DNA from: Pocillopora damicornis
Taxonomy: Eukaryota
Direction of reading: 5' to 3'
NCBI RefSeq assembly: GCF_003704095.1
Contig: NW_020844031.1
Location: forward strand, 434,001-498,000
Length of the DNA stretch: 64,000 bases
In this document: in pieces, positions 57 to 64,000 of the stretch
Numbering within the stretch: position 1 is the stretch's first letter
Layout: each line of letters begins with the position of its first letter
The notes under the pieces: model-generated
What the model was told of the DNA's origin: nothing
What the model saw: the letters and a program-made list of their open reading frames with translations, nothing else
The model's database searches: none
Position numbers and translations under genes: made by a program

Positions 57-2573
57 TGATATTATGAGTCAAAAAGTAGTTTGCTTCAAATCAGTAGAGA
101 AGGTAAGTTCGATTATTTCTCCACAGCTCACCGCTTTAGCTTGGATTTACATCCTACGAGCGAAACATGTTCAATTATCCACCTTCTTCCCTAACATTTC
201 CCAGTCTGTGGGTTACTCCAACATGGATTTAGTTTGTGCTCATTTTTGAAAGTTCGTCTTAATTAATCTTGGAACTTGGCCTGAGAAATTTTTCTCCCCT
301 CTGTCAAGCCCATTTCCGAACTGCCTCTTGTTTTTATTACATTTGGAAAGTGTTTCGTCACAGTAAGTAGTTCAGTTATGGAACGGCCTAACCTTTGCGA
401 GAAAAATAATGCGCTCGCGGTTTTTTTAGGTAACCTCCACGAATTTCTTGTAAATCTCAAGGAAGTTTTATCATAGGCCCTGTATAAGCCTTGTATTAGC
501 TTCTGCCTTTTACTAAAAGAGTGACTGATTCCCGACGATGAAGTGGAAAGCTTTCGGTTATTAAAGGATGTCTACCTCAACTCTCTCTCTCTCTCTGAGG
601 TTGTCTGAGGTAATTTTGAGGCGTTTAACTTAACCAGTTTTCATCTTGTCAGGTTGGACGAATAGTTGACGTATTGAAAGACACAAGCTCTCACCACAAT
701 GGGTTTCCTGTAGTTGATTTCCTTGAATTAAGAGAAGGAGAGGTATGCTTATTTGAGCTGTTTTTATGCTTTGTTTAATTCAGGTAAAAGACACTTTTCC
801 ATCGCTTTGTTCTTTCGTTTCAGGAATCCAGTAATGCAGACAGAGACACGGCCCCGTTCGGGACTTTCCGCGGCTTAATACTTAGATCCCAGCTTATTAT
901 TCTTCTTAAACAAAAGGTAAGAAAATGAAGCACATAAATGTCTAGAAGGATACAAAATTAGAGATCCCAGAAATTAATAAAGTGTTCCAAAGGAAGATCA
1001 TTCTGTTGAGAAGCGTCGAAGGGAAGAGCTCGAGGTTGAACTTTCGGATTTGATTCACGACAACCTGACACTTGATCGGGAGCTTTGTCATTTTGCGCAA
1101 CAAGCAAAATTGTGGCAAGAGCTTGAGAATGAGACCTCTTTTCTGGCTTTGTCAGTCGATAATGACTCGGCACGTACTCAGCAAATATCGGAAAGCGTCG
1201 AAAATATCAGCTTGGTTAACGATGACTCGTTTGTTCTTGTAAATGAAGAACTGAATCGCCAAAGCAGTGCTGTGTCGGATCAAAGCGAGGTTGAAGTTTT
1301 AAATCCATCGCTTTTTCTCATTCTATTTAATTTCTTCCTTTTAGATATTCTCTGAGAATAGTCGCCAAGGGAAAAAACATAACTTGATGTTGCAAGATTT
1401 CAGAGACGCTTATCCGCGATTTCCTCCCATCCGAGTGAGTATGGGTTCGAGTGAAGATGTTGAGTTTATCTCTCTTGCTTAAAGGTTCTTCAGACGTACC
1501 TACTTAACTCGAACCATTGGCAAGCTTATAAAGAATTTTGCGTCCAAACCAAACATAAGTGTTGGAAATTAATTTTTTGTTCCCATGATGCTTCTGTGGC
1601 TCATCGTGCTAGCGACTTGAATTTAACAAAGCTGTTCACATAAAATAGAGGATCTCTTTTTGGATTTATATTTTTGTTTGTTTTTGTTTTGTTTTGTTTT
1701 GTTATGGGTTTTTTTATCATTTCGTGTATTGGCGTCTTAGGCATTGCGGTTTGAGGGATCACTGATAAAGATTTCTCAAAAATATGATATAATTTCATTT
1801 CTCCTCGTGATTGTTCAATTGATGCGTAGTTGCTTTTTTTTTGCAGAATGTCAGTATATCAAAGAAAGAGAGAGACTGCTACATGGATCTTAGACCGTTT
1901 ATGAACCCAAGTCCCTACACAGTGCATGAAGTGAGCTCTATTTTCCTAAATACCGTCGTAGTTTTCAGAACATTTGCTGTGTAAAGCCGATATGAAATGT
2001 AAACTACGGTCAAGCCTCATAACGTCCTTACTCTTTTATTTCAGAATGTATCCCTTTCGCGTGTTTTCAAGTTATTCAGAGCTCTGGGACTCAGGCATAT
2101 TGTTGTGGTAAATGAAAACAATGAGGTGAGTAGGGTCTGGAAACTAGCTAAATGTCGGGGTCGTGAAATTGTTTCTGCTCACGCGGCCTTGGTGCATTTA
2201 CATGTTGGAGCGAGTTCCTTTAAGTCCTTTGTGTAGTGATTAAACAAATTATCGGCGTGATTCGTCTGGCACATTTCGAACTGAGCTGGGTAGTCCTGAT
2301 AGTTGAAAGCGTATGCGGTTAGATGTGAAAGCATCTCGTGGCGCGACAGTAAACAAAGGAGTTACCAGATGACCAAAAATCGCTTAATTCTCAACACTTA
2401 ATTGTCGAATCTTATTCACGATATCTTGACTGACTTTACGCTCTCTGTTACAGGTTGTTGGTATAGTAACGAGAAAAGACATCGCTCGTTTTCGAATGTG
2501 GAGTCATCGTGGTCAGATTGGCCTAGAGGAAGTTCACATTTTAGAAGAAAACTCCATACACGATTCTTTTTAA
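57..2573 (+). CDS. CLCN7: H+/Cl- exchange transporter 7 (ClC-7), last 7 coding exons covering the CBS domains; 5' part lies outside the window
   Basis: GT-AG exons 57-102, 653-742, 824-916, 1345-1434, 1847-1930, 2045-2125 and 2454-2573 splice in frame to DIMSQKVVCFKSVEK/VGRIVDVLKDTSSHHNGFPVV.../GLILRSQLIILLKQK/...DFRDAYPRFPPIR/...MDLRPFMNPSPYTVHE/NVSLSRVFKLFRALGLRHIVVV.../VVGIVTRKDIARFR...DSF*, matching the ClC-7 CBS1/CBS2 signature. Confidence 0.95.
999..1311 (+). pseudogene. Inverted partial duplicate (313 bp) of the CDR2-like terminal exon, inside CLCN7 intron 917-1344
   Basis: Aligns without gaps to the reverse complement of 5933-6245 with 18 substitutions by manual count (~94% identity); no ATG start or splice context of its own. 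Confidence 0.9.
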
Positions 2574-3113
2574 TCCATTCACTTAAGAACGCAATAGATC
2601 TCAAACCGACCTTGGGTACTTAAAATTGGAATAAGTCTAAAAAAGCTTCTTATGGTGGCTTGACTAATTGTCCAATCTACCAAGACGCCGTTCTCGGTGA
2701 GCGAAAACGAAGCTGTAGAAAGTTGTTTCCATGAATCGAGAAATTTGAAAAAACTGCCGGGCTATGTAGTGAGGTGTTGACTATCGTCAATGAGCGTGAT
2801 ATATTTAGTAATTGAATTCTTAGGGGTCTATTTAATATAATTGCGATTAAATTGTCAAAATAAATGAGAGGTTGATCCAGGGCGCCGTATTGAATCGCGA
2901 AAGTTAGAAAATACTCAGAGGGAGTATTTTCACCAATTTTTTTTAAGAGACGGAGTGCAGGGAGAAGTCTGGGGAAGGGATAGGTTTTCGTCGCCTCTCC
3001 CACCCGTCCCTCGTCTACTATGTTGAGTTGTTACGTCACCCAAGGCCTTTCACGTCTTTTTTTTTACTAATATCAGACACGACCCGTTTTTTCGATACTT
3101 TTTTGACGAAAAG

Positions 3114-3119
3114 AATAAA
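3114..3119 (+). terminator. Candidate poly(A) signal of CLCN7
   Basis: AATAAA about 540 nt after the CLCN7 stop; opposite-strand signals (TTTATT at 3183 and 3221) lie just beyond and may serve the CDR2-like gene. Other AATAAA copies exist nearby. Confidence 0.35.
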
Positions 3120-5582
3120 TGAGGTATAAAAAGTTATAAACAGAAATTTCAACTAGGCTCTGAGATATTTCGTGAAAGAAAATTTATTGACAGGTAGATT
3201 TGAAAGTCACATTTGATATATTTATTTTTTTATTTGGAAACAGAACATAAATAAAATTTATAAATATATACATATATATTAGAACAAAAATATAGAATAA
3301 CACTCTGTTATGGTAACCACTTTAAGAGACCAAACGGTTAAATAAAGTTAGAAATACGGTTTTAGATTGGGAGCAAAATTATCTTGTCATAATCATCACG
3401 AGCATAACCACATTATATCTTTGCTGTGATAGGTCGATAGGCATGCAAACTAATTTGTACGGACAAGTTCTTAATTTACTTTTTCATTCAATAGCTCGTC
3501 ACTGGTAGTGACTGGAAATTATTAAAACAGCAAATATTTTTGAAAAAAATCTTAGTTATTCCTTTAAAGGTTGACATTTTTTAATGCCGTTCTGGCTTTC
3601 TTACAATTTTCAATATTCTAGCTTCCTAAGGAAAAGACTCGACTCCTGAAAAGCGCGGTAACTTGTAAGCAGACGGCTGCTATTATTCGTGACCGTTTTT
3701 TTTTTAAGTTGAGGGGGTTTATCACACACCCTCCACCCCCGATCACACAAGAGGAGGTATTTTTATGTTCTCGGGTGACTGTAGGATAATCAACGAGTTT
3801 TTGTACTAAACTCAGTTACGCGATCGACGCTTACACTGAGAAATTGTCATCTTAAGAGATCTTGAGCACACGTTAATCCTGTTAAATACTAGATATTATT
3901 TACACTCTTGCTTTAATAGAGAGAAGAGAAAAAGGAAACCATTAAATCGAGTCGTCGAAAAAGTTTTTGTGTTTTGCTTTGAAGGAAAATTTTATTTTTC
4001 ACTAAGACACTTTTGAGTACTCTGAATCAACTTAGGACTTTTTGTTGAAGTCCTTAAACCAGGCCAAATTTCCCTCAACTGTGATTGGCCCAATCTGATC
4101 ACATGTGGCGCTTGATTACGAATCACCGCCGTAATGGGAAGAAGATAAGTTTCCTGGTCTCGGCTAAGAAGAATGACATAAGTTGCTTTAAGCGTTGGAA
4201 ATGTGCTCCAATCAGTTCACCGTCTGATTATGTTCCTTAATATTTCCTATTACACTTGAATTATATTCGAATATGCAAATTAATATTTTCCAGACAAGAA
4301 TCCTATCATTTATATTAATTGGTTTGTACTAGCTGTGATTTCCTTGTTTGTTATTTTTTATCGCAATCTCCATTGTTAAGGTCAGCGATTTCAAGAGATC
4401 TTTGACGTTATGAATAGTGCGCTCACAAAACGATTTTTTAAACAAAAGAATTCAATTTAATGAGAAAATAATTAACTGTGCCAACAAAACAACACAATGG
4501 CCATAAAACCAACAATGATGTCTGCATGTAAAACTAGGATTTCAAATTCATTATGTTGTTTGATCATTCGTCACGAAAACTCAAGTTTGCTCTGCGATAC
4601 TTCTTATGTTGGTTTTGAAATCTTGGCCTGACCTTCTGGAGCTGACAAGTCGCTTCAAACTTTGCCGGAAAGTCTACAGGTATCAATTTCTCTTTCAAGT
4701 TTATTTAAAGTAACGAAACTGGGCGGTAATTGTACTAAAATAATCACTCCTGCTCGGCAAATTTAGCAAAACATTCATGTTACGTTAGTTTATAGATCTT
4801 ACTTGTTCAGAATTGCAAAAACATTTTGTACACCAAGAAATCAGATACTGTTTGGTATCTGTATTAATTTGGGGTTAAAATTGACTTGCTAGGCAAACGC
4901 TTCGCTTTCGTCCAGAACACAAGACCAAATCACTGTGTCTAAATGTATTTGCCAGAATTCGAAATCTTACAGAGCATGATAAAATTTTATCAAGAAAGTT
5001 CCTTACGATTGCCATGGTTTCCTACTTGCCGATATGAAGTCACTCAAAAATCTGAGTCTTTAGAAGGCCACTGAAGAGTGCGCTATAGGTATCAAGACAA
5101 GAAATTAAATTTCTAAACGAACACGTTGAAATGTTAGCTCTCCCAGGGAGGGGAGGATGGGACCACCTTGACAGCGTTCCCTGCCCACTATAAGCCATTA
5201 ACTTGCGATCTTCGAGACAATGGCAAACAAGAAAAAAAATTAATTAGCTTATTGTCCCTAAATTAGAAACTTCGTGGTCTGATATATCAATTTAACTTAT
5301 GGTATATACAGTTGAATTAAATTTTAAACTTTCGCTACAACGAAATTTAGGGAGTTTAGGTAGTTGCACCTTAAAGCTTTATCCGGAAGCATACATCCTT
5401 TTTCCTGTAAAATAGATCATGCATGGTAAGATGTTTTTCCGAGCTAAGTGATTTTCGGCACGAGTAAATGAAATCGTGTAAATGAAATCTCACCACGCAA
5501 AGATACCCGTTCCACTCCTTATTTGCACCGTCTTTTAACTTGTGGGAAAGCCAAGCTCCAGAGCAGTTTTCGACATTTCACA

Positions 5583-8500
5583 TCACTCCTTAGATTCGCT
5601 TCTGTCTGCCGGTTTAAAAGTTTTGGATTCCTCTATTTTGGAGTAGATTTGTGCGAAGAGTTGCTTGTATTCCCTTCCGTTCCCTGATAAGCTGTTTTGC
5701 CGTGAAATATTTTGTGAACCTATTTCTTCAAATCGAACGTCGGGTTTCTCGTCCAGTGGCGAAGTTTGAATCGCACGCTGTACTGTCGGAATCGGAGCTA
5801 TATCTTGAACGATTCCTTCGCTTTTGCATCTCTCAACCAGAGAGTCGTATTTCCTAACAAGCTCGTGATATTGGCTTCCAAGCTCTGACAAAAACGATGT
5901 GCTGTTCTCTTTGAGAGGAGACTTCGCCTCATGCGACGGACTTAAAACTTCAACCTCGCTTTGATCCGACATAGCGCTGCTTTGGCGATTCAGTTCTTCA
6001 TCTATAAGAACAAACGAGTCATCGTCATCCAAGCTGATATTTTCGACGCTTTCCGATATTTGCCGATTATGTGCCGAGTCATTATCGACTGACAAAGCCA
6101 GACAAGAGGTCTCGTTCTCAAGCTCTTGCCACAATTTTGCTTGTTGCGCAAAATGACAAAGCTCTCGATCAAGTGTCTGGTTTTCATGAATCAAATCCGA
6201 AAGTTCAATCTCGAGCTCTTCCCTTCGACGCTTCTCAACAGAATGTTGTCTTTTTAACTTCATAATCCTATCGTTGAGAATTTCAATATCTTTCTTAAAA
6301 CTTAAAACTGCCTCGTCTTTTTCGGTGTGATCAGACTCGTTGTCGCTGCCTAACTCGTACCCATTCTCCTTCTGAGTAAGTTTGAGAGACAGACTGTTGG
6401 CCATCTCCCTCTGAAGTCTCATTCTTTCTATTTGGAGTTCTTCTAACTGCACCCTGTACTCATCGCACTTATTTTCCAAGGAGTCCACGGTTTGCACAAG
6501 CGTTTGGTAGCGTTTTCTCATAACCGCAGTCTCACTTTGTAATTCCTTGTTAGTATTCTGTAGTTCCAAAGCAGTGGATTCCATTTGTTCACAAGCCTTC
6601 ACTTGACCATCATGCAATTCCCGCAGTGTTTCCAGTTGTTTGGAAAGAAACTGAAGATTTCAAAACAGTTACATATATTATGAGCGCGCATTGATTATTA
6701 TAAGAAAATATTAATTACCACTTTTAACCATTTACACAAATTAAGTAATTGTAGAAAAATCTGTCTTCTCCCCTAAGTAGCGTATACATACGGGATAGTC
6801 TTTAGAGTGTCACGCAACGCTTGGGGGGAAGGGGGGTGACTTCCCTAGGAGAGGTACGGGACAGAGTCGCTAAGTCGCCTGCGCTTGCTCTAGCTTCCCT
6901 AGTATGAAGCGCCAACCAAGAGTACTAATATTCCGCTTAGGTGTACTTCAAACGGGGTGAGTTGAAGTTACAAGCTCGCAATCGTTTATTTGACCAGGCA
7001 TGTTTGATTCAGAGTTGACGTGCACGGTGGGGTGAGGGGGAGTGACCTATTTCCTCTCCTCTCCTAAATTTTGACCGTCGCTCCCCCGCTTAGCATAGAT
7101 TTCTTTCCTTTCCAGTCTTACGCGGAGGTAAAAATCAAAATGGCCTTTAATTTTTTTCGGAAATTTTATCAACTTAATTCAAAGGTTCGAGCGAATAAAT
7201 CCGTTCGAATTTTGGGTGGCTAAACTGTCTTTCTCTAGTCAGTTACTTCTTTTCTTTTCTCTCTCTGCTTCCCTCCTCTTAGATTAGAAACGCGTTCAAT
7301 CTATGCGATTACTGTATATTGAGCCAGTAAGAATATAATCTGAGAGATAGAAGAACGTGATCAAGAATGAAAAACAAACAAATTTCATCGCTAAAAGCAT
7401 ATGGAATATTTCAGTTTCTTTACCTCATTTTTAATGGACTGCTCCTCGAGATAGTGATGTGACGACTTCAACATTACTTCCAGTTCTTTGTTTCGTTCCA
7501 GAAGATTTTTGCCGATCTCAGCCGCCAGCTCGAGATCTATAATATGGCCAAGGTAAAAAAATAAAACGTTCCTTCAGTGATATTGGTTGCAATGTAGGGT
7601 ACAAAGATAGCTTCATTTTGTCACGCTTGAGCAACGATTACAAGATGAACGATTACTTAGCGCGCATTAGTTCTGAAGAAGTCAGTAATCGTGAAGATCA
7701 ATGATAAATCATAAAACAGTAAATCTAAATCTCATTTTGCAGTTTTACGAATAACATTTCAACGGTAATAAACTCCGTTCCTGTTTTCTTTGATCAATAA
7801 CAAGAGAGATGAACGTTTTCTTAAAGCGGGAGAGGCCAGCATCAACTACGATTTTCACAACACTTCCATAAGTCTACCATTACTTTTTGTTGGTCGAGAC
7901 TAGAGTTGGATAGGAAGCGAAAGGAATCGGAAGGCGACTTAACCAGGCGATAACGAACAAATTAAGTAGGATTTTTCTGTTAAAGTGCTAAAAGCTGGAA
8001 AGAGAGCAGATATTGATGTTGCTCTGAGCTATACAACTGAACATTCATAGCGCTCCAAGCACAAAAAGGGGTTTACATAACCAAAGCTTCCAACCTACCC
8101 GCTTTATGCCATCTATTATCACACAAAGGGTAAGATTCACAAAACACCGATGGATGTTCAGATTCCATGACAAAAGATGCTTTCACAATTAACTTGTTAC
8201 CAAGACTAAAAGTTCATGCAACTTAGTTTGAGCATTAGCGTTGTTTGACCAATGAGATTTCACTTCTGGTAAATAACTGAATAATGGCAGAGAAAGTTTG
8301 TTTGCTGAATGAATGTAATATTGAAACAAGTCTTTCGACCTAATCAGTGATAAACTCTTTGTGAGTGATAAAATTTCCCGTGATTTTTTGGCGGATCAAT
8401 ATGGAATCTCTAACAATTCGCAATTTAACACCGTTTTGCGAAACAAAAACTTATGTGATTAAAAGTAATCTTATACGTAGCTTATTCACATACTGTTGCT

Positions 8501-9334
8501 GTTCATGTTATTGTTTTTCCTTTCCTTTCCTTTGGTGGAACAAGTTTTTAATGTGTGTCGCCTATGTTCGTATTTATCACTATTGCCTTGGTATCGCTTT
8601 CCAACTTTCCCCACAAAGCGGAAGTGACGCAATTTTCTTGCGCAGCGGAAGCGAAATGTTTGGGTGTTGCTGAAAAAGTCTACAAGTTTGCCTAATAACC
8701 CGCGGAAAATAAATTAACTGACCCACCGGCAAAGATAATCTGTTTTCTTAGAAACATTCTCGACGGCATAACAGTTTTATCCGATGACGATGTTGATTTA
8801 AATATAAATCACCAAATCCTTGAGTGGCTTTTACATGATATGGTGACAATAAAATTATATTCGAACTTTGTGTTGAAATATTCTTAGATAAAAGACATGA
8901 TTGACTGACTACCCTCATTCAAGATCGCCTTGAAAATGCATAGAAACACAGAAATCAAATAATATCACTGGGTTAAAAATGTCTTGAATTTGTATGAATC
9001 TCGAATCAAATTTCACACAGAATCAGACAAAAACCTTTTGATCAATCAACTTGTTCAATACACTCGCGATCGCATTTTAATAGTGGAATGTCTGTACTCA
9101 AAAAAATCGACAGGATACATGCTACTTTTTTTTTTTCGTTAGGGTCACTTGCAATTATTCTTGAGGTAGTGAAAGGAAACATTTTTCACGGCAGAATGCA
9201 CTAAACGGCGAGAAAGACACAGCGATACTAAGGACATAATCTCACTCACCAGTACAGCAATGTGATCCGCGATCTTTCTGCTCCATACTATCGCTGATGT
9301 ATTCCAAATTATAAAGCGACGAATTCACCTCCAT
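5583..9334 (-). CDS. CDR2L: Cerebellar degeneration-related protein 2 / CDR2-like coiled-coil protein
   Basis: Exons 9334-9250, 7536-7424 and 6650-5583 are phase-consistent: MEVNSSLYNLEY...CCT/DLELAAEIGKNLLERNKELE...KNE/FLSKQLETLRELHDGQVKACEQME...; DLxLAAExGKxLLxRN (CC1-box) plus C-terminal EYKQLFAQIYSKI match the CDR2/CDR2L family. Probably co-ortholog of both vertebrate genes. Confidence 0.85.
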
Positions 9335-18900: not shown

Positions 18901-21613
18901 CACTGACATCCGTTGTAAGCGGAGACTATCGCCGGCTCCCGATTGCATGTAAGTTCGTGTACTTAAGCAGCAGACCGTCGGGAAACCTAGAAAAGTCATT
19001 GTTGGTTTTACAAACAGGTGTGTCCCATGACAACGCTGTGCCATTTGAAAGTAAAATAAACGGAGTAATTCAATTTTTGTGGCATCCCTGTGTCTTCGTT
19101 GCCAAACTGGCGAACGAATACATGTGAAGGGACCTAAACCTGGCTTTACTCTGAACTCTGAATACATAGATAGCATCCCTCGAGCACTGCAAGAGGGACT
19201 GTTATCACCAACAAAAAACAAGCATCATCCTATTGCATCACTGTGGTGCTAATTTCCTCTCGTCAATCGCATCGTTGACCTTCTTTTCATTTTTAAAGTA
19301 AACTCAAATATATTAATATGATGGATGGGACAAATCGTATTTGTTTAAACACACCCATAATGGAATTTTTTAATAAACTTGGAATATCCCTTTACAACAA
19401 ACTATTCTGTCTGGTGTTGATGGTATTTGATCGGCCGTTTGCAAAGATAACAACTCAACTTGAGTTTCTGTTTGATGGTTTCACGGATGAAATGTTTCTC
19501 TATCCCTGCTATTTTTTAGGTTGTTAAAGTCATTTCTTTTCCAGGAAGTATTTCTCCCCTGAAATTATTGTCGTCTTTGCCTCAATAAACAACAACTTAG
19601 CCCAGATGGTTGCAAAAAGGTTTCGTGCCTTCTACCCCACTGACAAATGTCTGTTTGGCTAATGGACTTACAAGTCATGTGAACTGCAGTTTCCGTTCGT
19701 GTTGATTGATGTATAAAATACCATCAAGGCTAATAATATTTGATCTGAGAGTTACCTTTTCAATTGGGTGATAAATTCAAGGACTATTCAAGAGTCTTAT
19801 CTACTTGGAATTAAGTCGGAACTCGTGCTTCACTTAACAGTGAAGTCCGTTTACTAACCGTTTGGACGTTTGAATTGTATTGTTTGAGGACGGTTACGTT
19901 TTGGATTAATCGTACAAGATTACCAAGCGAGGTAGGGCTCCTAGAGAGCTGTGTTTTGATGTCTCGTTACTTTTTATTTCCAGGCAATTATCAAATGCAA
20001 CAATCGGAATAGATTAAACGCAGATCATTATTAACAGGTTGTTTCGGAAAATTTTCACGGTCATGTATGCAAACATGAATAGATTTAGTTTGGAAATGTG
20101 GGAGATCTGAACCTCATATTTGTTGATTCCATCTTTTTAACCTGGATTTAACCCAGGAGAAAGGTATTCTGAGACTCTTAGAATAAAACGTGTCTTCGCT
20201 GTGGTCAACTCATACTTAATCGACCGTGCCGTAAGAAAATTAGGTCTTATTGCTTCTCTCAGACGGTGGTAAGCAGTTGCTGCACCTCATATAGAATCTC
20301 AATTATTTAAAAACACTCCTTGATTGCCACAACGATTGATGTAGTCCTTAACCTCGATACATGCTTCCTGAATGAACTGAAAACCAATTAATAAAAGCAG
20401 TAAAAACAGATTTATTTATTTATTATCTGGAAATCAGTGAATTTTGCCTCTCTACTCACGCAGTCCACAACGTAAGCTGTCTCATCCAGGTTCTCACTGG
20501 CAAAACATTTACATAATCGACAACAAAGCTGTAACGAAATATTTATCAGAACTGGCCCAATGATTGTTAGTTACATAAATGGACTTTGAAACCCTAGGCG
20601 CACTGGTCTGTTGTCGAATTTTATCTTGTGACAATGAGTTAAACATGTTCCAATGCTTTATAACAGGAACGTTACTACAGGAACACTTCGTGCGATTTGC
20701 GCGGCTATTTTCGACTGGAATTCAGCCGTTGTCATCGACTTTCGGTTCCTTCTCACCTCTGTCTAAATATCAGCACTAATCCTTCGTTATTTGCTCATTT
20801 GTTAGAACTCATAATTGCTATTACATACAAATTTTCCTTGTAAGGATTTGGGCAGAAGGGTAGCGATACAAATGTTTAAAACGCTAGAGTCTCTTAAAAT
20901 GTTCATCATCTCAAGTTACTGTTTAATGAAGCTATCGCTATCTCGGAGACTCCATCTTCTGCCTAGGCGTTGACAACTTACGAACGATCTTCACTGAGCC
21001 AGAGCGCGATTTTTTACATGGGGAGAAACCACCAAATTCAAAATGTGTACAACTTCAGCTTGTTTTTTAACTTTTATAGAAGGTTTGAGGTTTGACATGA
21101 AGTTATAATTATCTTATTCTGATCTATTCTAACAACATACGCTGAAAGAAGTCAACTGAATAGTTGTCTTTCAATGTTGTTGGCGGCTTTTAAAAGCTTT
21201 GTTCATAATATTGAAGCTAGAATTTCAACCAGGGTTTTTTCATTTCCATAGAGCAGATTACTTTGTATCAAATTAAATTTTTTCTATTTTTATCTTTTAT
21301 TTCATTGATATCTTTCCAAATATTACTCCTCAATCGTTGCAATTGCAGTTTGCTCTTTAATTTCTAAATATTTTGAAGCGCCGTTTTTTCCAAAAGTTAC
21401 TTATTAAGTTGTTTTATCATTTTGTGTCTGATTGCAGATTTTTGGATCCAAAAGTTTCTTCCGCCGAACTTAAGTGCTATCTACAACCACTTGGTTGAAA
21501 ATAATTGACATATTTATCTGTAGTTGTCTCTTTTTTCCAGACTGAAGTGAGCAAGTACTTGTTTGTTGGCCTCCAGTAAACATTTCACATTTCGACAATT
21601 TGTTCTTGTAAGG

Positions 21614-22705
21614 ATGATTTATCCTGGTAACTCCAGCTACCCTAACGCAAGTCAATCGGTCGGCCCGCGTCCTGAACTGGAACCGAGATACGCCGTGACT
21701 CTTCGCCTTACCTTAAGTGCTATCATCTGCTCCATTGGAGTTGTGGGTAATATTTTGGTTGTCATCATCACAGGAGCAAACCACGGTGGTAAAACCGCTG
21801 TACACAAGTACATCCTCAACTTGGCCATCGCAGATATCAGTGTACTGGCAATTTGTTACCCGCTTACTCTTGTGAAAGCCGCGGATCCTGAAAACTGGCC
21901 GCTCGGAAGGTTTGTATGCAAGTTTGTGTACCCGTTTACGGATATCTTCTACAGTGCTTCCATTGGCTCCATCGTTGCCATAGCAATGGACCGCCACACA
22001 GCAATCGTTCGTGGAATGACAGCGTACAGGTCGAGGACGATTGCTAAATGGGTGATCCTGGCGATCTGGATTGCAAGCTTCATGAGTTCCGTGTTTCCAG
22101 TTTACTTGGTGATGGAATACATAGAGAACAATAGTACAGTTGACTGTACTCCAAAGTGGCCAAGTCACACCACTTTTGCCGCTTACGTGTTTTCTTTAAC
22201 GATTTTTTGGTACGTTATACCGCTGTTCTTGATTCTCTGGGCATACCGGCAGATCGCGTGCAAAATTCGCGACAGCAAAATACTCCACCAAAAAATGCAC
22301 AATATGGTTGGCTCTTACAAGAGAGAAAGGAAGAAGAAATTCGAAACTGCAAACACCAAAGCTCTTAAAATCCTCGTGCCGGTGGTGATTGTCTTTGCTA
22401 TAACTATGTTTCCCTTTCATCTTTTTCAAGTAGTCAGAGTTTTCGTTGACGTGGGTCACATGAAATACATTTGGGTCGTGTATAACATATTTATTACTCT
22501 GATGCTGACAAACAGTGCTGCAAATCCGATTATTTACTCCCTTGTGAGCGAGGAGTTTCGGCAACAGTTCAAAAACATTTTGTACTTTAAATGTCAGCGT
22601 CTATGCCTCGAGCCGAGGAAAAAACATGATGCATCTATCACATATCGATATTCTCTTTCAGTAACTGCGCCTCCACCAAATCCTGACCGAGAGACAGATG
22701 TGTGA
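21614..22705 (+). CDS. Rhodopsin-like (class A) GPCR of neuropeptide-receptor type (galanin/allatostatin/somatostatin-like); single coding exon
   Basis: Seven hydrophobic segments with GVVGN (TM1), NLAIAD (TM2), WPLGRFVCK, AMDRH (TM3), YVIPL (TM5), NSAANPIIY (TM7); N-glycosylation sites NSS/NAS. First ATG at 21614 (the track's 21563 start is TTG); likely 5' UTR splice acceptor at 21436-21437. Confidence 0.92.
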   Translation: MIYPGNSSYPNASQSVGPRPELEPRYAVTLRLTLSAIICSIGVVGNILVVIITGANHGGKTAVHKYILNLAIADISVLAICYPLTLVKAADPENWPLGRFVCKFVYPFTDIFYSASIGSIVAIAMDRHTAIVRGMTAYRSRTIAKWVILAIWIASFMSSVFPVYLVMEYIENNSTVDCTPKWPSHTTFAAYVFSLTIFWYVIPLFLILWAYRQIACKIRDSKILHQKMHNMVGSYKRERKKKFETANTKALKILVPVVIVFAITMFPFHLFQVVRVFVDVGHMKYIWVVYNIFITLMLTNSAANPIIYSLVSEEFRQQFKNILYFKCQRLCLEPRKKHDASITYRYSLSVTAPPPNPDRETDV

Positions 22706-39100: not shown

Positions 39101-42100
39101 AAAAGTTTAGAAGTTAGGATTATCTCAATTTTTTTTTCAGGGGAGGGGACCCTTACTTTGTGACTGTCATAGCTAATCTCTCCACTAAGACAAACCATCC
39201 CATTAGAGAATCCTGTCTAATGATTTTTTTTTTTCAGTTGTAAAATAAGAACATCAATTAACCCTTTAACCCCTAAGAGTGATTAGCATCTAATTTCTCC
39301 CTACAAGATCACCCATGAATCACACATTTAGGTCATGAGAAAAAAGGAATTGGTCACTAGGGAAGGGACCTTTTGATTGGCAAACAAATTCTCCTGGTCA
39401 GCAGCTTAGGAAATGTATAAAGAACAGTATGGAGAATATGCATACTGATGTTAAGGTGTAAAGGGTTAAAAAGCTTTGGCTTTGGCCAGTTATTGCTCCC
39501 TGTTTTCAAGCATGTGACACTCTTGTTTATATTTACATTGATGTAATATCTTGACCATTTTGAATTGTTTTTGAGTTATGGGTATTTAGAGAAACCTTGC
39601 TATCAGTGCATGTAATTACTGTTATGTGATCTGCTGAAGTAAACAAGCATTTTGATTGGTTGCTACTTATGATTAAATGGAGGACAGACTCATAGATAAT
39701 CTCACCATTAGCAACATTTTGCTTTTTTTTATTTTAAATAAATAGATGTCATGTTGCTGTGCAACTGTTCAGTAGTAGATTACAGTAGTTGTCAAAACGT
39801 GTGAAGACCATCGGTGACATGTTCTGCTTCGCCTCTGGCACCACATTTTTTGTTCTTGCCACATTTCGAATGGACGCATAGAAGTTCTTTGTTGTCGATT
39901 GAAAGTCTTCTACTATCCTAATTTGACAGGTACATCAACAAGCCTTGGACGCGCTCCAAGCTTTGGTAAATCCTCAGTGTCCAGAGTGAGCACAACTCCT
40001 CTTAGTACAAAAAGCACCACGGGCAATGAAGAACAGCAAACATCGGTGGGTGAAGTCTTGTTGTGTCAGTGCTTTAATCAGTGATCACTTTGGTTGACTT
40101 AGAGAGCAGTTTTCAATTTACTGTCAAGTACTTAAACTCCAAAACAAAAGGAATCACAACGGCTAATCATTACAAAGGTTAACATCAATGTGAGCCAATG
40201 AGCACTCAATGTAAAAATAGACAAACCATGAAAAAGGCAGGAAAATGCAGGTGACTAAGTCATGCTTGTTTTTTGTTTTGGGAGTTTTGTAGACCAATCA
40301 CTGACCGAAAACAATGCCAAACCAAACCATCTCAGATTACTTTAGATACTTAACTGCAAATTTCTTTAACAAACAAGAGAAATTATGGCAACCAAATGTA
40401 CAATGAAATTCACCAATTTGACAACCTGTGATGGCTGGCTGTGTAACAAGCGGAAAGGGTTTGATTTCTGAGTGTTTTATGTCTAAGTTAAAGTGAGATA
40501 AACTGTTACATGAAGTAGCATGTGAAATTGTACAAATTTGTTTTTCATGGACAACTAATGGAGTGCATTAATACCTCAGCGTAATAGAAATATTCCTTTT
40601 CACTTCATCGACATGGAACTAAAATAGTGTGCTTATCAGATAACCTAACAGACTTGTAGGAAATTAAACCCATGGGTCTGTTTTTAGTTTTTTGGTGAGA
40701 AGTAAACTTTTGAAAAATCTCTCAGATTTCTTTTGCTATCTAACAAATCCGTTCTGTTTTTCTGTTAATTTTTTTCTCTATTCAGTTGCAGCTAGAGAAA
40801 CTTAAAGACGAAAACAAACGCCTGAGGGAACAAAGCGTGTTATCCGTTAGGCAGAAGGATTCGACACATATTTTAGAGTTGGAACTTAAAACAAAAGTGA
40901 GCAGAATTAAAGAGTTAGAGAAGGAGCTCTCACAGTGCCGAGACTATCAGAAGGCACTGCTATTTCAGGAGAAAGAACTGCTTGAGGCCAGAACTAAAAT
41001 GAACGATTTGAAACAACAAATGGAAGAGAAAGAGAAACTTCTTCAGCAGCACAAAGGCAAGCTGTCGATTCATGCTAAGGAACTCGCCGAGGCCAAAGCC
41101 GACTTGCAGGAAGCCAATAGTATTATTGGCATTCACAGGGCGAATATTGAATCGCTGAAAAATGAACTTACTTCTATGAAAAATATCTCAGGAAGTGGGA
41201 AGGAAAAACTGATTGTAACTGGCGAAGAACCCGAGAGTGATCAAGTGTTTAGTTTGAAAACAGAGGCCAGTGGGAACGAAGGCAAGGATCTAGAATCTAA
41301 ACTTTCAGCTCTTATGCAGAAACTAAAGCAAAACGAACGCGAGTTATTAGTGAAGACTAGAGAACTCGAGAAAGCGAACGAAAGTCGGTCGAAAGTGGCA
41401 AAGTACACTCGGTCTTTGTTGCAGGAATTGGAGTCGAAACTGAGTAACAATGAGAGGAAGCTTGCAGAGACCGAAAATCAACTTGTAAACAAAAACGTAG
41501 AACTCGAATATGAAAAGGGAAGACGGCTTAAAGTTGAGGAAGAGAACAACAGATTGTTTTCAGAGCTTGAGTTGTTATCTGATGAAAGGAAAAAGGATGG
41601 GCTTTCGAAGGAAGTCGTCGAACTTTTAAAGAGAGCAAAAGAACGAGTCGCATCTGAAAATATTGTGCCAGTTAGAGAAATGTCTGTGGAAACTGGGCTA
41701 ACGTCAGTAATTCCGAAAACTAAAGATGACGAGAAAAGAACTAGTAATGGTGTCTCATACGTCGAGGAAATTGATAAATTAAAATCAGTTCTTGCTTCAG
41801 CGGAGAGTTCTTCGGATCAGAGTGATAGCGAGACGAGCTTTAGGTCGGCTAAGAAAGAAACTGATCGTCTTAAGGATCGTTTGAAAGTGCAACAAAGAGA
41901 TTATGAAAGTTTACGAATCGAGAGTAGCAAAATTAGGGAAGATTTGAAAAAGCGGGACACTGAACTGGATTCCTTGCGCAAGGAGCTGAGAAAGTTGGAG
42001 GATAGAAACGCAGATGTAGTTGAGAAAAACCGAGAATTAGAAGAAAGGCTTCAAACTGTGGAAAGCGAACTTACAGAAAGTATGGAAAGGGAGATATTCC

Positions 42101-45100
42101 TTCAAACTGAGAATGAAACCGATGAAGGTGAAAGATGGGATGTGAAAGAACGTATTGTGGGTTTGGAGGAGGAGGTGTCAATTTACAAAGACAAAATTGA
42201 TGAACTGGAAACAAAATTAGTTGAGAAGGAATCCAAAAATGTAAACGTAGAGAAAGATAGAAATCGTGTGCACGAATTAGAGCGTCTTTTGAAAATTAAA
42301 GAGGATGAACTGAAAGAAATAGAGAGGCGTAATTCTCGAAGAGAACGAGAGTTGAAGAAAGAGGAGGAAACAAAACGAGATGAAATGGAGATTGAATTAA
42401 GCCGAGAAAAGCTCCGACTTCAAGAACTTGAAGAGCAGTTCGGTCAGGTCCAAAACGCTTTGGATTCTGAACGAAATAAGTCGAAGGTAAAGGAGAATGA
42501 ACTTGAAGAACTCAGGAAGACAACCAGTCTCATGGTGTACAGAGAGGACGCAGAAAGACATATAGATGAGCTCGAATCGGAGTTGAAAGAAAAAGAAGAT
42601 AAACTCTCTGAAAGAGAGTCTTCTCTGTCCATTGCTAGCGAGAGAATCGCCGAATGCGAAGAAAAATTGAGGAATTATGAATTAAAGGCTAAAGAGTTTG
42701 TGTCAAAGAATTCGGCTGATCTGGAAAAGAAAATTCGAGAACTACAAGAGGAACTGGAAGACAGCAGGGAAAGGTTGGCCGCAGCCGAAGAAAAACTGGA
42801 GGATTTCGAAGTGGAAGAAAAACTTCTCGCTGCTGAGCTTCACAAAAGTGAAAGGGAAGACAATGATAAGGTTGACGAGGTGAGGAAGAAGTTGACGGAG
42901 GCAGAGGAGAAAATTAAGAAGTACGAAGACTTTGCCAAGGACAAAAATTCTAAACTTATAGCGAGCGAGGAGAAGGTCATCGAACTTGCTGAAGAATTAG
43001 CGAGAAGGCTCGCCGTGGAACAAGAAACGGCTGAGTGGATTGAAGGTGTTGAAAATAATCTTACTCAAAGAGAGAAAGAGCTTAATGTCACGCGAGAAAG
43101 TTTGGTAAATAAGGCCAAGGATTTAGACAAGGAAAAATACAGCATTTTAGACGTTATGGAACTGTCTATGAGGTACATTAAAGAGTTAGAGCTGGCTGTA
43201 GGTGAGGAGAGAGAGAATGCCAAAGAACTCGAGCGACAACTGGATGATGAAAGGGCACGTGTAACTCAAATGGTTCAAGAGATGAAGAGCGTCGAAAGTG
43301 AAGGAAATAAAAACCAAGACGCTCTGAATGACAACGCAAGCGTGGAAGAAAGGTTATCTTCTTGCGAGATAAGACGAGAACTAGAATCCACTCGAGTGAA
43401 GCAACTCCAGACAGAACTTGAAGACTCCAAGAGAAAATTCGCCGAAGAGCTGAGTTCGGAAAGGGACTCGCACGTAAATGAGATGAGGAAGTTAAATGAG
43501 GAGGCTTTGCAAGTCTCCGGAGCCGCTAATTCAGAAGCCGATGAGTTGAAATTGCGGCTGACTTCCCGTGTGATAACTCTACAGTCCGACATCAGCGAAC
43601 TGAAGGCTGCGCATCATCAGGAGTTGGAAAAACTACGGGCTCAACACAAGAAGGAATTAGAGAACGCCAGACGGGAAGCCATCTTGGAGACCAGTGCTAG
43701 AGAAGTGATACGAGAAACTGATGAGGACATGGCGGCCAGAGTTAAGGAGGTGGAAGACGAGATGAAAGAAATGACAGAAAGGTAGAAAAATTTTTAGTAG
43801 TTGTGTTTGTTTTGTTGAGAATACAAGGTCATTGTACGCTTTAGTGTCACTTGTTTTCACGTGTAGTGATAGTAATTGATTTTCTAGATATGAAAGTCAA
43901 ATGGAGACACTTAAGAAGAGCCATTCTCGAGAGATGGACAAGCTCAAGCGGAGCAGCGGAGACGGTGTGGATGGGCTACAGACAGAAGTGGTCCAACTAC
44001 AGGTTGAGATGGAGAACATGAGCCAGAAATACATGGAGGAAATTGAGAATCTTAAGGTTTGTTTTACGAGCATTTTTCCTCGGCTCCACTCCGCCACGAC
44101 CATTGCCTTCGTGGTGGAGGCTATGCCAGGGCAGACAGTGAATATGTTGGCTGACTCCTCTGAAGTTAATCTTGATATAATAGTTATGGGATAAAACTGT
44201 AGCACAACATAATTAACTCATATCGGCATGTTTACGTCAGAAAGTTGTCCCAATTTCTTGTTAGTATTTGATTTTAAGAGTTTTTTTTCAGAACTCATAC
44301 CTTTTTAACTCTTCACTGGTATTGTTATTTACACGATTCCTCTTCTTTTTCTTTAGGTTCAACACGGAGAAGAACTAGAACAACTCAAACGCGACATGGC
44401 TGTTGTTCTGCAGGCGTCTTTAGGAGCAGCACCTTCCTCAGCCAAAGACGACTCCAATGTCCAGCTGCTCAAGAACAGAATTAATGAACTGGAGCAACAA
44501 ACAGAAGAACTGAGCCGGAAGTACAACGAAGAACTCAAAGCTGAAAGGGTAGATTATTTTGTCAATATCTTTCGGGGTAAAGTTAGCGGCTAGTTTCCTT
44601 CAATTTCCCGGCTCATTTAACCTTACCTTCTTCATCTCTTCGTTTACAGGAAAAACAACAGCGAGAAATTGAGCAAACGCGTAACGACATGATGACAGTG
44701 ATCCAGGCAATCAGATCGGAAAAGTACGCCGACGAAGGTAGAGCAGCTTCTCCGCGCCATCTTGAAGACCTGCCTGAAGAATTGGCCAAGATGCAGGAAG
44801 AATACGAAGAAAAGATCGCTAAACTGCAAGAAGAACATGAAGAAGCCTTGAGGGAGGCGAAAGGATCGAAGACAGTTGTTTCAATGAATTCCATGAAAGG
44901 AGAACAAGAGGTAATGTGACATGACTCTTACGCTTTGACTCCTAAGAGTGACTAGCATTCAATTTCTCCTTACAATATCACTCCAGAATCACTCTTTAAG
45001 GTCACGAGAATAAAGGAATTGATCACCAACTGAAGAAGCTCTTGATTGTTAAAAAAATTCTCCTTGTGAGCACCTTGGAAAATAGACGGAGAAAGTATGG

Positions 45101-47970
45101 AGAATATACATACTGATGTGTGGTGTAAATGCTCAAAAGAGTTTAGCTTGTTTTTTTCTCCAGGTGATGTCTTTACATCGTCATATAGAAATGTTTTGCG
45201 AATTTATGAAATTATAATTCAGGGGATCTAAGCGAGTAGTTTACCGTTTACCGCTTCACTTTTTTATAGTGAAGAAAGTAGGTCAGCTATCAACTCAAAT
45301 TTTTCACGCGAAAAGATCGTAGTTTATTTTAATTGTTGTACTTTGTTTGTAGAATGATTCCCAGCTTAAAAAGAAAGTCAGACAGTTAGAGGCGGAGTTG
45401 TTGTCTTGTAAGGAGGAATTTCAGAAGCAGCTGCAACAGAAGGACACCAAACACGATGAAGAAGTGAACTTGCTGAAGGCCGACATGTTGGTAGCTCTTC
45501 AAGTGGCTCGGAGTGGTAATTTGCCCCCAGCTGGAGCTAGTCAACCAGATTCCCAGACTTCTAGCAGCACCATCACTCACGGAGGAACAAAGCTCTCCTT
45601 AGAGGTCTGGTGCTCTTGTTTCGTTTTTGATTGCGACCGTGTGGCATTGATCTGAGAACTTGTCGTCCAGACCATCTTGAAAGTTAAAGAAAAAAGCTAT
45701 TTGCTCAAGAGTAGAGGTTAAAGAAATTGGTCTATGGGAATTTTCCACCGAGCAAAAACGTTTCCTCTTAAAATGGGATTTAAGCTCTGTCGGCCGTTTC
45801 CGTCCTGGTGGGTCGTACTTTCGCAAAATTTGCTCCTCGTACACTGCTTTCTACTTCCTCGATTATCTCTTCCCTCTGCGCACGATTTTTGTTTGCATAT
45901 TGCCAGCTTTCGTCCAACCATCGTTTGCCGTCCCTCTTTGTTGCATTAGTAGTCTACTTCCCAGCCGTTGTTTGTTCTTGTTACGTTGCGCGTTTTCTCT
46001 CCGAAAGAGATGGATGAGACAAGGTGTGTTGCGTGACAAAACCAAATAAGGACTGCGACGGGGACGACTGTCACACTCGTTCGAAAGTAATGAGAATTCA
46101 TGAAGTTTTATTTCATGAGCATCTTTTGAGTAATTTTATCAATTTCTTGACAGGAAGCTGTCGCGAAAATCACCAGTTTGGAAAAGACAATCGAAACCAC
46201 CAAGAAACAAGCTAAGAAGGAAAAATCTGATTTAGAAAAAAGCTTGAAAAAATCCGAGGCTGCCACAATGTTTGGACTGAGACGAACCGAAGAGATGAGC
46301 ATAAAGATTTACCAAATGCAGAAAGAAATGGAAATTATTGACCGCAAATATCAAAAGGAGATACAAATGTACAAGGACGCGTTTGAACGAGAGAAAGAGG
46401 AGAAATGCCAGCTGGGAGACTGGGAGACACTGTCCTCCGAGAACGACAGTCTGCGACTGGAAATCGAAGAACTTGATTTGAAAATCGAAGAAATGGAAAA
46501 TACACACCAGGCCGAGATCAATATGTATAAACAAAAGCTCGGCGAGGAGGAAATGCAAAGTATCGAGAGCTTAAGATTGAAAATCAAGAGCTTAGAGGAT
46601 GTTATTGAAGAACAAAAGTTAGAGCATGAGAAAGAGTTGGAAGATTTGAAACTGGAAAGAGACGCATCCGTTCAGGAATTAAAAAGACGACACGAAAAGG
46701 AACTTGAGAATGTCAAAAGTGAACAGCGAGTGGTGAACGTAGGGAGTAGCCATACGCGTGCCACTTCTTTCGATTTGCAACAAAAAGATCTAAGAATTAA
46801 AGAGTTAGAGCTCAAAGTTGAGGAGCAGGAAACTCTTCTTGAGGTGAAAAGACGAAGACACAAAGAAGAGATAAAAAGTCTTCGTCAGAGATTGGACGAC
46901 GAAATGCAAAAGCACACCGAAGATGTTCGGTCGCACCGAACCAAGGTTCGGATGCTGGAACGACGCAAATCCGAACACTCGATCTCTTTCGGGTTAGTGG
47001 ACGACGATTATAAACGGATGTACGATGAACAACGTTCGGAGAATATTAAGCTTAAGTTTACTGTTGAGAAACAGAAGAAGGAGTTGGACGATATGCGCAC
47101 TGCTTTGGCAGCTAAAGAAGAGAAAGCAGCAGAGGTTACAGAGAGAAGAAAAGCGTTTGGTAAGGGGATTTCTGAAATTATGAATAGTGTGACATCGTGA
47201 AATCCAACGTATTTCCCTTTTCCTAACGCAACTTCTCTTTTCAATATTTTTATAGACTTTTGCTGGAAATAGATCACTGTCTGAATACTTTTTTAATAGA
47301 TCAATTTATTTATCGCTTACGTGAGAATACTTAAAAACTTAATGACCCATGCCAGGTTTTTTTATTTGGTATCAGCGACTTTGAAACGGCTTTAATCGTA
47401 ACGGGCTGTTTGACCGTAGGGTGATTCGTAGCTGTTGTTGTCCTCATCACGCCGCACACTCACATTTATAGAGAGCGTGTTGCCTGACGAGGCAAAACAA
47501 CTGCTGAGTAAGGGAATTGCAGCTTGATAGCGATCATTCTAAATTTCTTCTAACGATGGTTAGTATTGTGCCTTTCACATTTCTCTCCTCTTGTTCGTCA
47601 TTCATTGTCTCTTTGTTTGATGACCAATCTGCTAGACAAGAAAATTCATTATTGAGCTTGAATTTTGACCTTGTCTCTTTCAGGAGAATCACGGCGCCCT
47701 GTTTCAGATTCCTTCCCATCAGGCTTTTCGTACAGCCGGACCACTCCAGCCCAGGACTCCTCCTCCCAACCCGGCAAAGTGCCTCTGAGAAAAGTATCTT
47801 CGGATAACAAGTCAGACTCAGATCCTGTGTGGAAGAGGGCGTCAGGGGGACCACTGTCAAGACAGGCGTCCGAGGGAGGGTTAGGAAAACATGATGTTGG
47901 CAAGGGGAAAATATTTACAAGGCAACTCTCTAAAGGGGTGAGTGAGCAAAGTCGATTACTCATGGAATAA
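36134..47970 (+). CDS. MPRIP: MPRIP/TRIOBP/Outspread-like protein (~1950 aa): Cys/His N-terminal motif, one PH domain, very long coiled coil
   Basis: N-terminus CRNFQPNVFNKSKCQNCFK matches MPRIP CRKFQANIFNKSKCQNCFK; PH motifs RWNKRWFVL, GNINL, YYLKAENRLELDNW. Phase-consistent exons 36134-36286, 36449-36538, 36649-36720, 38786-39044, 39930-40045, 40786-43781, 43888-44056, 44357-44548, 44650-44910, 45353-45604, 46154-47159, 47684-47970 (5853 nt). The 3' end may be alternatively spliced. Confidence 0.8.
39258..39469. mobile_element. TTAA MITE, subfamily B
   Basis: TTAACCCTTTA...TAAAGGGTTAA termini. Confidence 0.88.
40103..40365. mobile_element. AGAGCAGTTTTCAAT MITE family copy
   Basis: Same left TIR and internal AGACCAATCAC as 23022-23298; right end decayed. 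Confidence 0.7.
44928..45136. mobile_element. TTAA MITE, subfamily B, decayed termini
   Basis: CCTAAGAGTGACTAGCATTCAATTTCTCCTTACAATATCAC...GTATGGAGAATATACATACTGATG aligns with 39258-39469. Confidence 0.75.
45950..46069. mobile_element. Short palindromic MITE-like element (AGTC..CAGCCGTT...GTTGCGTGAC...CTGCG..GACT)
   Basis: Imperfect inverted ends; similar decayed pieces near 6797-6865 and 47420-47517. Confidence 0.45.
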
Positions 47971-63484: not shown

Positions 63485-64000
63485 CTGTCAGAAACATGAA
63501 TCAAAATTGCAATCACTGATTGTATTAACTGACACTTCGGAGTCTTCATGATGCTATTGTTGGGGTGAACGTTAAGATAATGAATTCTGCAAGTATTGAT
63601 AACTGCAATAAACTTACATAATAAAGAATGCAAGATTAAATTACAGAAATACTAAAACACTGATTGAGTCCGATGGCACGTTCAGAGTTGATTTTAGTTT
63701 TCTGATGAATAACATCTCATGCATTAAGCAATCAAATTTATTTTTGCATTTCTTTAGAACCGTGAAGCAGGGACCTTGCCATGTTTGTCTTGGTAGTGTT
63801 TAAACCAAACTAAAACCAACTCCGAACATGCAATTCGACTCAATCCATGTTAAAGTGTCCCTGTAATTTAATCTCGCATTCTTTATCAAGTAAATTTTTT
63901 GCAGTTATTAATGGTCGCAGAATTCACTATCCTCGCATAAATTGCCTTGACAATGGCGTCATGAAGACTTCGAAACGTCGGTTCATATCGCTATTACTTA

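Follow-up and report, generated by a model that had tools for sequence, protein, structure and literature searches.

An intron of the gene CLCN7 in Pocillopora damicornis contains an inverted copy of an internal piece of the third coding exon of its convergent CDR2-like neighbour; the copy recurs in other organisms, is removed with its intron and has changed in a neutral pattern. We infer that it is most likely an inert templated insertion that arose once during DNA repair and is without function. The features below lie in the stretch of 64,000 nucleotides analysed here, which we call the window.

Two Convergent Genes Share an Inverted Segment

57 to 2573, plus strand: 3′ part of CLCN7 (ClC-7), from exons, RNA joints, a weak CBS match and a ClC-7 match
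824 to 916, plus strand: CLCN7 exon upstream of the host intron
917 to 1344, plus strand: CLCN7 host intron of arm A (428 nt, phase 0, GT..AG), from the sequence and an RNA joint
999 to 1311, plus strand (the sense of CDR2): arm A, copy of an internal piece of CDR2-like exon 3 (313 nt), inside the host intron
1319 to 1327, plus strand: CATTCTATT, like the first bases of arm A (999–1007) in 8 of 9 letters, candidate junction microhomology or short duplication
1345 to 1434, plus strand: CLCN7 exon downstream of the host intron
2846 to 2864, plus strand: first CLCN7 poly(A) signals past the stop (ATTAAA 2846, AATAAA 2859), putative cleavage use
3183 to 3234, minus strand: candidate end of the CDR2-like 3′ UTR (AATAAA 3183, 3221, 3229), putative use
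5583 to 9334, minus strand: CDR2-like gene, coding exons 9334–9250, 7536–7424 and 6650–5583 (stop)
5933 to 6245, minus strand: arm B, the template, codons within CDR2-like exon 3, from a repeat search and alignment

CLCN7 starts upstream of the window (locus L003), and its exons in the window are 57–102, 653–742, 824–916, 1345–1434, 1847–1930, 2045–2125 and 2454–2573 (stop). The best match of its exon is ClC-7 (E = 2e-34), with ClC-6 at 2e-26. The opposing gene has 80% matches among coral proteins called CDR2-like, and its three coding exons are found joined in locus L007. None of five peptides had a Pfam family above its cut-off.

An earlier, sequence-only reading had described 999–1311 as a gap-free inverted copy of 5933–6245, which proved exact down to its 18 differences, and had placed it 33 nt before the acceptor of a 428-nt intron, a geometry with which the RNA splice joint agrees. 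The two arms, 94% complementary and separated by 4621 nt in the repeat search, align without gaps throughout, and the sequences beyond their ends are unrelated. A DNA search of the whole genome returned two places, arm A and arm B (E = 1.5e-135 for the partner), and the protein search matched the CDR2-like gene and its copy only. Isolated two-copy inverted pairs are uncommon in this region, with 2 over about 600 kb once a single duplication cluster is set aside. A literature search, which covered few subscription papers, found no report of this locus or arrangement in its listings. As an internal exon fragment, arm A lacks a start, a poly(A) tail and splice sites of its own; the insert stops within the exon, and T-rich intron sequence comes next. 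Its intron flanks comprise 82 nt on the left and 33 nt on the right, the latter with a polypyrimidine tract and AG.

The Copy Is Spliced Out and Has Diverged without Protein-Level Constraint

In both RNA runs (X15 and X19) the host intron is removed whole by a GT..AG joint skipping 428 nt, with depths of 333 and 261. The listed RNA contigs that fall on arm A are all CDR2 mRNA, and their loose ends at 999 and 1311 are the flanks of CDR2 itself.

By script, the 18 differences between the arms comprise 13 transitions and divide into 13 non-synonymous and 5 synonymous changes, without a stop. Six of them are polymorphisms on the CDR2 side, where other CDR2 alleles have the letter of the copy; against the common CDR2 allele arm A is 96.2% identical, and 12 sites are copy-specific (1061, 1066, 1141, 1174, 1180, 1218, 1239, 1242, 1268, 1272, 1303 and 1307). 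The changes at these sites are 10 non-synonymous to 2 synonymous (omega 1.3, P = 1.0 under the neutral expectation; omega 0.69 over all 18 differences), whereas the same codons of the CDR2-like gene, compared with three other corals, give an omega of 0.05–0.14, and under an omega of 0.139 the 10:2 pattern has P = 0.0007. Arm A has mutated without protein-level constraint, its reading frame showing no purifying selection; together with the intact removal of the intron and the lack of any joint into the copy, this bears out the earlier description of a neutral-looking, non-coding copy. A neutral protein ratio does not test function at the RNA level. Six of the 13 transitions are at CpG (P = 0.007), and such transitions are the ordinary decay of methylated DNA. 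DNA run X5 has a 21-nt tandem duplication within the copy, a multiple of three in length, which is absent from X6.

Occurrence in Other Corals

Contigs of both other DNA runs (X5 and X6) include the copy, which has no gaps in either X6 or this genome. In L006, a distant coral that also has the convergent gene pair, the corresponding intron is 409 nt long and without CDR2 likeness; its score against CDR2 (22) is like that of shuffles (21.1 ± 2.2), and an older, decayed copy in this outgroup was rejected. Among the three loci listed from at least 591 pattern matches of a metagenome scan, L006 was the only one to reach CLCN7. An empty, pre-insertion allele was not recovered from these sources: X5 and X6 both carry the insert, and the L006 intron does not align with the flanking sequence. 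As a counterpoint to the inert reading, a function would also explain why both other organisms have kept the copy and why it is without gaps in X6 and this genome.

A Probable Repair Origin of the Insert

The sequence-only reading had allowed that the copy may be an inert repair scar, and we adopt this as the best reading. A break or stalled fork in the CLCN7 intron may have been patched by copying the nearby gene on the opposite strand through a template switch, possibly primed at CATTCT; alternatively, cDNA from CDR2 RNA could have served as the source. The insert would have survived because donor, branch region and acceptor were left intact, and would then have spread by drift. The occurrence of CATTCT at both 999 and 1319 is suggestive of microhomology or of a short duplication: flank matches of at least six bases were found for 3 of 752 random 313-nt exon segments, or 10 of 752 when either end was counted. 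A templated origin of the intron flanks themselves from nearby DNA was rejected, the best local scores (19–26) being short, obtained without a control run and not distinguishable from chance. On the other side of the reading as an inert repair insertion stand a junction mechanism at the level of a candidate, a pre-insertion intron that was not recovered, the local rarity of isolated inverted pairs, the in-frame length of the X5 duplication and the abundance of ADAR editing near inverted sequence in coral.

Alternative Readings

That the copy is an assembly artefact is largely refuted and extremely unlikely. Its left junction is covered by overlapping contigs only, none having 31 letters on each side, but the right junction is bridged by single contigs at 1188–1541 (X5) and 1188–1569 (X6), which stem from two studies and two organisms, each with its own variants; moreover, on this assembly the RNA joint spans exactly 428 nt, and the copy has 12 differences of its own. 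Recombination between the arms, whether as gene conversion that carries variants from the copy into CDR2 or as inversion of the 4.6-kb interval in some individuals, we regard as quite improbable. Copy-type residues occur within the gene in 4 of the 15 listed members of a 256-member protein cluster (P0048, P0059, P0057 and P0058, the last extending into the intron flank), and the copy is closer to CDR2 in its 5′ part (2 differences in 142 sites) than in its 3′ part (10 in 171; P = 0.07). However, the copy-type tracts coincide with clusters of k = 31 bubbles, all four proteins are exon-only ORFs from DNA assemblies, and in X5 and X6 the arms are merged into one contig (1012–1217) with about twofold depth and mixed letters, as expected of an assembler artefact. 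Both the X15 and X19 RNA contigs and P0001, a spliced protein, have gene-type letters at those copy-specific sites that are shown, and an inversion would be expected to sever the last CBS domain of CLCN7 and the C-terminus of CDR2. Gene conversion drawn from the chimeric database proteins was rejected, bubble collapse in the assembler accounting for them. It is very unlikely, finally, that a cryptic in-frame acceptor (AAG, 990–992) joins the exon ending at 916 to the copy, producing a truncated ClC-7/CDR2 fusion: the reading frame of the upstream exon stays open through the copy (ORF 981–1355, phase 0) and the X5 insertion preserves that frame, but neither RNA run has a joint into the copy, the normal joint is strong, the acceptor is A-rich without a polypyrimidine tract, omega is neutral and the chance of no stop among 12 changes is 0.55.

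The possible long-hairpin dsRNA locus that headed the sequence-only reading found no support here: both RNA runs remove the intron whole, neither annotated-type transcript contains both arms, and poly(A) signals lie on both strands within the 4.6 kb between the arms, those of the plus strand including further ones at 3114, 3250 and 3341. Two further statements of that reading did hold. A transcript spanning both arms could pair, with a predicted arm duplex of −550 kcal/mol (minus strand) or −556 kcal/mol (plus strand), and the intron alone has the same sense as CDR2 mRNA, the sense–sense duplex (−130.7 kcal/mol) lying close to shuffles (−119.2 ± 7.2, lowest −133.3). Trans pairing between the intron and CDR2 mRNA was rejected, its energy being like that of the shuffles. 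If termination of CDR2 or CLCN7 failed, for example under stress, one RNA might hold both arms, form a 313-bp duplex and be edited by ADAR or cut by Dicer, with feedback on CDR2; this chain of events as a whole is unlikely. The predicted stability of the duplex speaks for it, as do the 140 of 293 21-mers identical to the common CDR2 allele, a CDR2 RNA contig of 2174 nt that implies a long 3′ UTR, to about 3900, and, in the cited sections, dsRNA editing in coral (PMC5850803) and endo-siRNAs in cnidarians (PMC6211395). However, 5247 nt of uncleaved RNA would be required, which on the plus strand means running about 3.1 kb beyond the first CLCN7 poly(A) signal with the intron unspliced, and on the minus strand passing the CDR2 signals by about 1.8–1.9 kb and crossing a gene transcribed in the opposite direction. 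Among the 13 transitions, 7 (plus) versus 6 (minus) are tolerated as G-U pairs and thus show no bias toward keeping the pairing; furthermore, even without the copy, any RNA reading through in this way is antisense to the neighbouring gene. It is rather improbable that the arrangement works as a termination sensor, in which read-through of the CDR2 poly(A) site, for example in heat stress, would copy the antisense image of the exon and fold the 313-bp duplex, and ADAR or Dicer would mark only read-through transcripts or siRNA would lower CDR2.

The RNA data are contigs, which cannot reveal strand, rare read-through, small RNA or low editing. CLCN7 contigs of X19 end at 2853, adjoining the poly(A) signals, with cover resuming at 3075, X15 has no cover past about 2445, a different stop, and the depth in bin 948–1034 is that of the CDR2 contig alone in both runs; being contig patterns, these are not read-through evidence. 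An A>G difference at 1162 in RNA contigs also occurs in DNA run X5, and no A-to-G cluster was found in these contigs, set against unmatched DNA; another A>G, at 1206, is on one of two allele-like X15 contigs, contigs being a source that drops rare variants. In human data, editing drops exponentially with arm distance, the scale being about 800 bp, and arms in exon/intron segments are edited more weakly (PMC4066801, cited section). ADAR editing in coral is described as abundant and tied to inverted sequence nearby (PMC5850803, cited section).

Implications and Comparison with Known Systems

Read as a scar, arm A is ordinary. Its presence or absence can serve as a dated marker across related corals, and it carries a warning: short-read assemblers merge the copy with the gene and thereby generate false CDR2 alleles, as in the four database proteins above. 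Were the read-through duplex real, it would show, in an animal, an intron of the neighbouring gene tying failed termination to silencing of the very gene that reads through, which coral heat-stress data could test via the 12 diagnostic letters.

Drosophila hairpin RNAs and mouse pseudogene endo-siRNAs are alike in that gene-derived inverted sequence could give siRNA against the parent gene; these cases have a dedicated transcript with both arms or an antisense pseudogene transcript, whereas the coral RNA contigs show neither. The partial duplicates of poplar ARR17 share with arm A the exon fragment, relaxed protein constraint, inverted repeat and homology to a functional gene, but there the hairpin forms from two fragments, with small RNAs and target methylation measured, while the second coral arm is the parent gene, which belongs to a separate transcription unit, and any coral siRNA is hypothetical (PMC9636151, cited section). 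As a further counterpoint to the inert reading, the same section gives the ARR17 fragments a Ka/Ks above 1, yet they make siRNA (PMC9636151). ADAR-edited inverted Alu pairs and coral hyper-editing likewise involve inverted arms of about 300 bp and high identity; according to the cited sections, the two members of an edited pair share one pre-mRNA and are mostly within 2–3.5 kb of each other, unlike the coral arms in different genes 4.6 kb apart (PMC4066801; PMC5850803).

Templated patches that come with microhomology and untemplated bases form a known class, which in the cited sections includes class 2 templated sequence insertions (TSIPs) as well as MMBIR-type insertions (PMC5110952; PMC8421209). 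These were described in humans, whereas the coral donor is the coding exon of a neighbouring gene 4.6 kb away, and the coral insertion is old, differing by 3.8% from the common allele, its empty allele not seen in X5 and X6, which carry the insert, or in the unalignable L006 intron. As in that class, arm A is a short patch whose template lies elsewhere in the same genome, its 3′ end has neither a poly(A) tail nor a polyadenylation signal, its junction possibly involves microhomology and a few untemplated bases, and it is heritable, with no function given for such insertions in the sections cited.

The Inverted CDR2 Copy and Its Host Gene

A repeat search of the window found two inverted arms of 313 nt that are 94% complementary and spaced 4621 nt apart; arm A aligns to arm B without gaps and with sharp ends.

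917-1344, + strand: CLCN7 intron hosting arm A, phase 0, between two CBS domains
999-1311: arm A (the copy), in CDR2 sense on the + strand
5933-6245: arm B (the template), CDR2-like exon 3
− strand: CDR2-like gene, three exons; 46 of 2160 candidate proteins match its product

On the + strand of the window lie the seven final exons of a ClC-7 gene. An exon in the DNA upstream of it (L003) has its best structure match in ClC-7 (E 2e-34), ahead of ClC-6 (2e-26), and five CLCN7 splice joints are confirmed by RNA contigs. All named proteins that match the CDR2-like product are themselves CDR2-like, from stony corals (80%) and from sea anemones (46%); by these relatives the source is a stony coral. 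The arms differ at 18 positions, comprising 13 transitions, 6 of these at CpG (P=0.007), or, counted by codon, 13 non-synonymous and 5 synonymous changes with no stops; repeat search, alignment and codon comparison reproduced every count that the sequence-only reading had given for the copy. Within its own genome, DNA and protein searches (the latter with the CDR2-like exon) each returned at least two places, gene and copy, and no others among the matches.

Across 678 kb of the window's contig there are 30 inverted alignments with arms within 20 kb, each at least 100 bp long and at least 85% identical. A duplication cluster that lies in the first 76 kb accounts for 26 of them and a high-copy family for 2; the other 2 are two-copy pairs, namely arm A/arm B and a 112-bp pair. 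Parts of the genome are rich in local inverted duplications; an isolated copy of this type is uncommon, though not unique. The cluster itself (G000:C666:1-76000, L008-L015) is dense in recent direct and inverted segmental duplications; assembly gaps may lie between the members of some of its direct pairs, which are separated by 101 bases.

Presence of the Copy in Other Individuals and Relatives

The stretch occurs in 20 of 24 listed runs, all as assembled contigs and 6 recorded as RNA; four (DNA-type runs X5 and X6, RNA runs X15 and X19) were compared with window 600-3200. Single contigs from two studies bridge the right junction of the copy, 1188-1541 in X5 (organism A) and 1188-1569 in X6 (organism B), and the left junction is covered in both only by contigs that overlap there, no single one of which reaches 31 letters to each side of it. 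Each of these individuals has variants of its own; in X5 one of them is a tandem duplication of 21 nt within the copy. The copy is therefore common to more than this genome.

Copy-type residues occur inside the gene in 4 of 15 listed database proteins (P0048, P0057, P0058, P0059), and P0058 continues from CDR2 into the intron flank. These mosaics looked like gene conversion or inversion between the arms; the copy also resembles the gene somewhat more closely in its 5′ part (P=0.07). However, the copy-specific sites form four clusters at k=31 to which the mosaic tracts are equal, and in X5 and X6 the arms are merged in one contig over ~1012-1217 at roughly twice flank depth, in X6 with mixed letters. 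Collapse of the two arms by the assembler is therefore the most likely explanation, true conversion being a less likely one.

Of at least three metagenome loci, L006, with 73% identity over the CDR2 exon, agrees with the window in its convergent gene pair and exon structure. Its orthologous intron (409 nt) contains no inverted match to itself, and its scores against both CDR2 and the copy are those of shuffled sequence; L006 is too distant to show an empty allele, so all that follows from its intron is that the copy is either missing or not recognisable there.

Alleles and Selection

The gene's protein cluster has 256 members, 40 read and 15 listed. The copy residues V13, T60 and V73, among the 13 amino-acid differences, occur in all 15, which makes this genome's CDR2 allele the odd one at those residues; over the 313 sites of 5933-6245 it departs from the most common alleles at ~6, of which three change residues. 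Letter counts in the RNA contigs added three synonymous CDR2-side sites: X15 records four other letters over 999-1161, all listed and none at 1035, 1058, 1079 or 1130, and X19 records nine over 1170-1311, seven listed and two deduced (1303 and 1307), an assignment that rests on the listed table rows (13 more exist).

The remaining 12 changes are copy-specific; 10 of them are non-synonymous and 2 are synonymous, which gives omega 1.3. They fit neutral expectation (P=1.0), in agreement with the earlier view of a neutral-looking sequence that is probably not a protein-coding paralog. Within the gene, these codons have omega 0.14, 0.05 and 0.12 in comparisons with three other corals, where dS is near-saturated; under gene-like constraint the observed counts have P=0.0007 at omega 0.139 and P=0.005 at 0.2. 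The open frame of the copy is uninformative because its chance of staying open is 0.55.

Transcripts and the Putative Duplex

In both RNA runs, from two studies, contigs join 916 to 1345 (depth 333 and 261) and skip the 428-nt GT..AG intron; neither contains a joint into the copy, despite a weak in-frame acceptor at 990-992. A coding paralog or exon accordingly fails as an account of the copy, its omega being neutral and the whole of it being spliced out with the intron. The listed RNA contigs on arm A have loose ends identical to CDR2 flanks and gene-type letters, and are therefore CDR2 mRNA (34 further pieces exist). The last CLCN7 intron is present in contigs of both runs (at 2098-2481) at depth 13-14 versus 220-330 at spliced joints, a possible case of intron retention or pre-mRNA.

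The sequence-only reading had proposed that co-transcribed arms could fold into a ~310-bp duplex, and their predicted pairing is strong (-550 to -556 kcal/mol). Predicted pairing of the intron with CDR2 mRNA, which has the same sense, is no better than that of shuffles; the reading was right that the intron alone is no simple antisense RNA. An RNA spanning both arms would be 5247 nt long and would have to run beyond the poly(A) signals at 2846-2864 (+) or 3183-3234 (−); on the + strand it must also retain the intron through 3.1 kb further. G-U-tolerated changes number 7 versus 6 by strand, so pairing is not visibly kept on one strand. RNA contigs, blind to strand, level, rare read-through and low editing, show no A-to-G cluster on the arm; an A-to-G at 1162 is also in DNA, and one at 1206 is on one of two allele-like contigs. 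For human Alu pairs, editability decays with a scale of ~800 bp, is reduced ~20-fold at 2400 bp and is also weaker when a pair lies in different gene segments (PMC4066801); a coral study links hyper-edited regions with inverted matches lying no more than 2 kb away (PMC5850803). The human distance rule would apply to a coral by analogy only. Judged by the features that define hairpin-RNA loci, the arm pair is at most a putative one.

Upstream CLCN7 introns hold opposite-orientation copies of a high-copy 215-bp element (L003:3786-4000 and L003:6396-6610), 95% alike, 2.4 kb apart on the same pre-mRNA and with a predicted duplex of -328 kcal/mol. The element ends TTAACCC...GGGTTAA, which we take to be piggyBac-type MITE ends. 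This pair is a more plausible ADAR substrate than arm A/arm B.

Other Features of the Window

21551-22705, +: intronless 384-aa ORF, by eye reading like a seven-transmembrane receptor
40744-43785 and 46151-47200, +: two very long exons, encoding 1013 and 349 aa of a coiled-coil protein rich in Glu and Lys; they cause the strong purine skew between 40 and 48 kb
63523-63987: probably a foldback or MITE element, imperfectly palindromic; its arms at 63576-63700 and 63807-63931 match at 82%, and it has outer arms as well

Origin and Comparison with Known Systems

The insert comes from the interior of an exon and has no poly(A). The bases with which it begins, CATTCT, recur 7 nt past its end; 3 of 752 random segments match likewise, or 10 of 752 counting either end. 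A templated repair patch using microhomology and a few untemplated bases could have placed the insert in the CLCN7 intron. Class 2 templated insertions show microhomology and untemplated bases, which the junction may share (PMC5110952), and the copy also fits MMBIR-type templated insertions (PMC8421209). DNA and RNA templates are indistinguishable because the insert includes no exon junction; the nearness of the donor would favour a DNA template switch. Among the literature matches listed, no paper deals with this locus. In our judgment the copy is real, common to related corals and most likely an inert repair scar.

Neutral protein change alone cannot exclude function, because the functional ARR17 fragments of poplar also have relaxed Ka/Ks; for those, however, hairpin and small RNAs were measured (PMC9636151). 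If functional, the copy would act like those fragments (PMC9636151).
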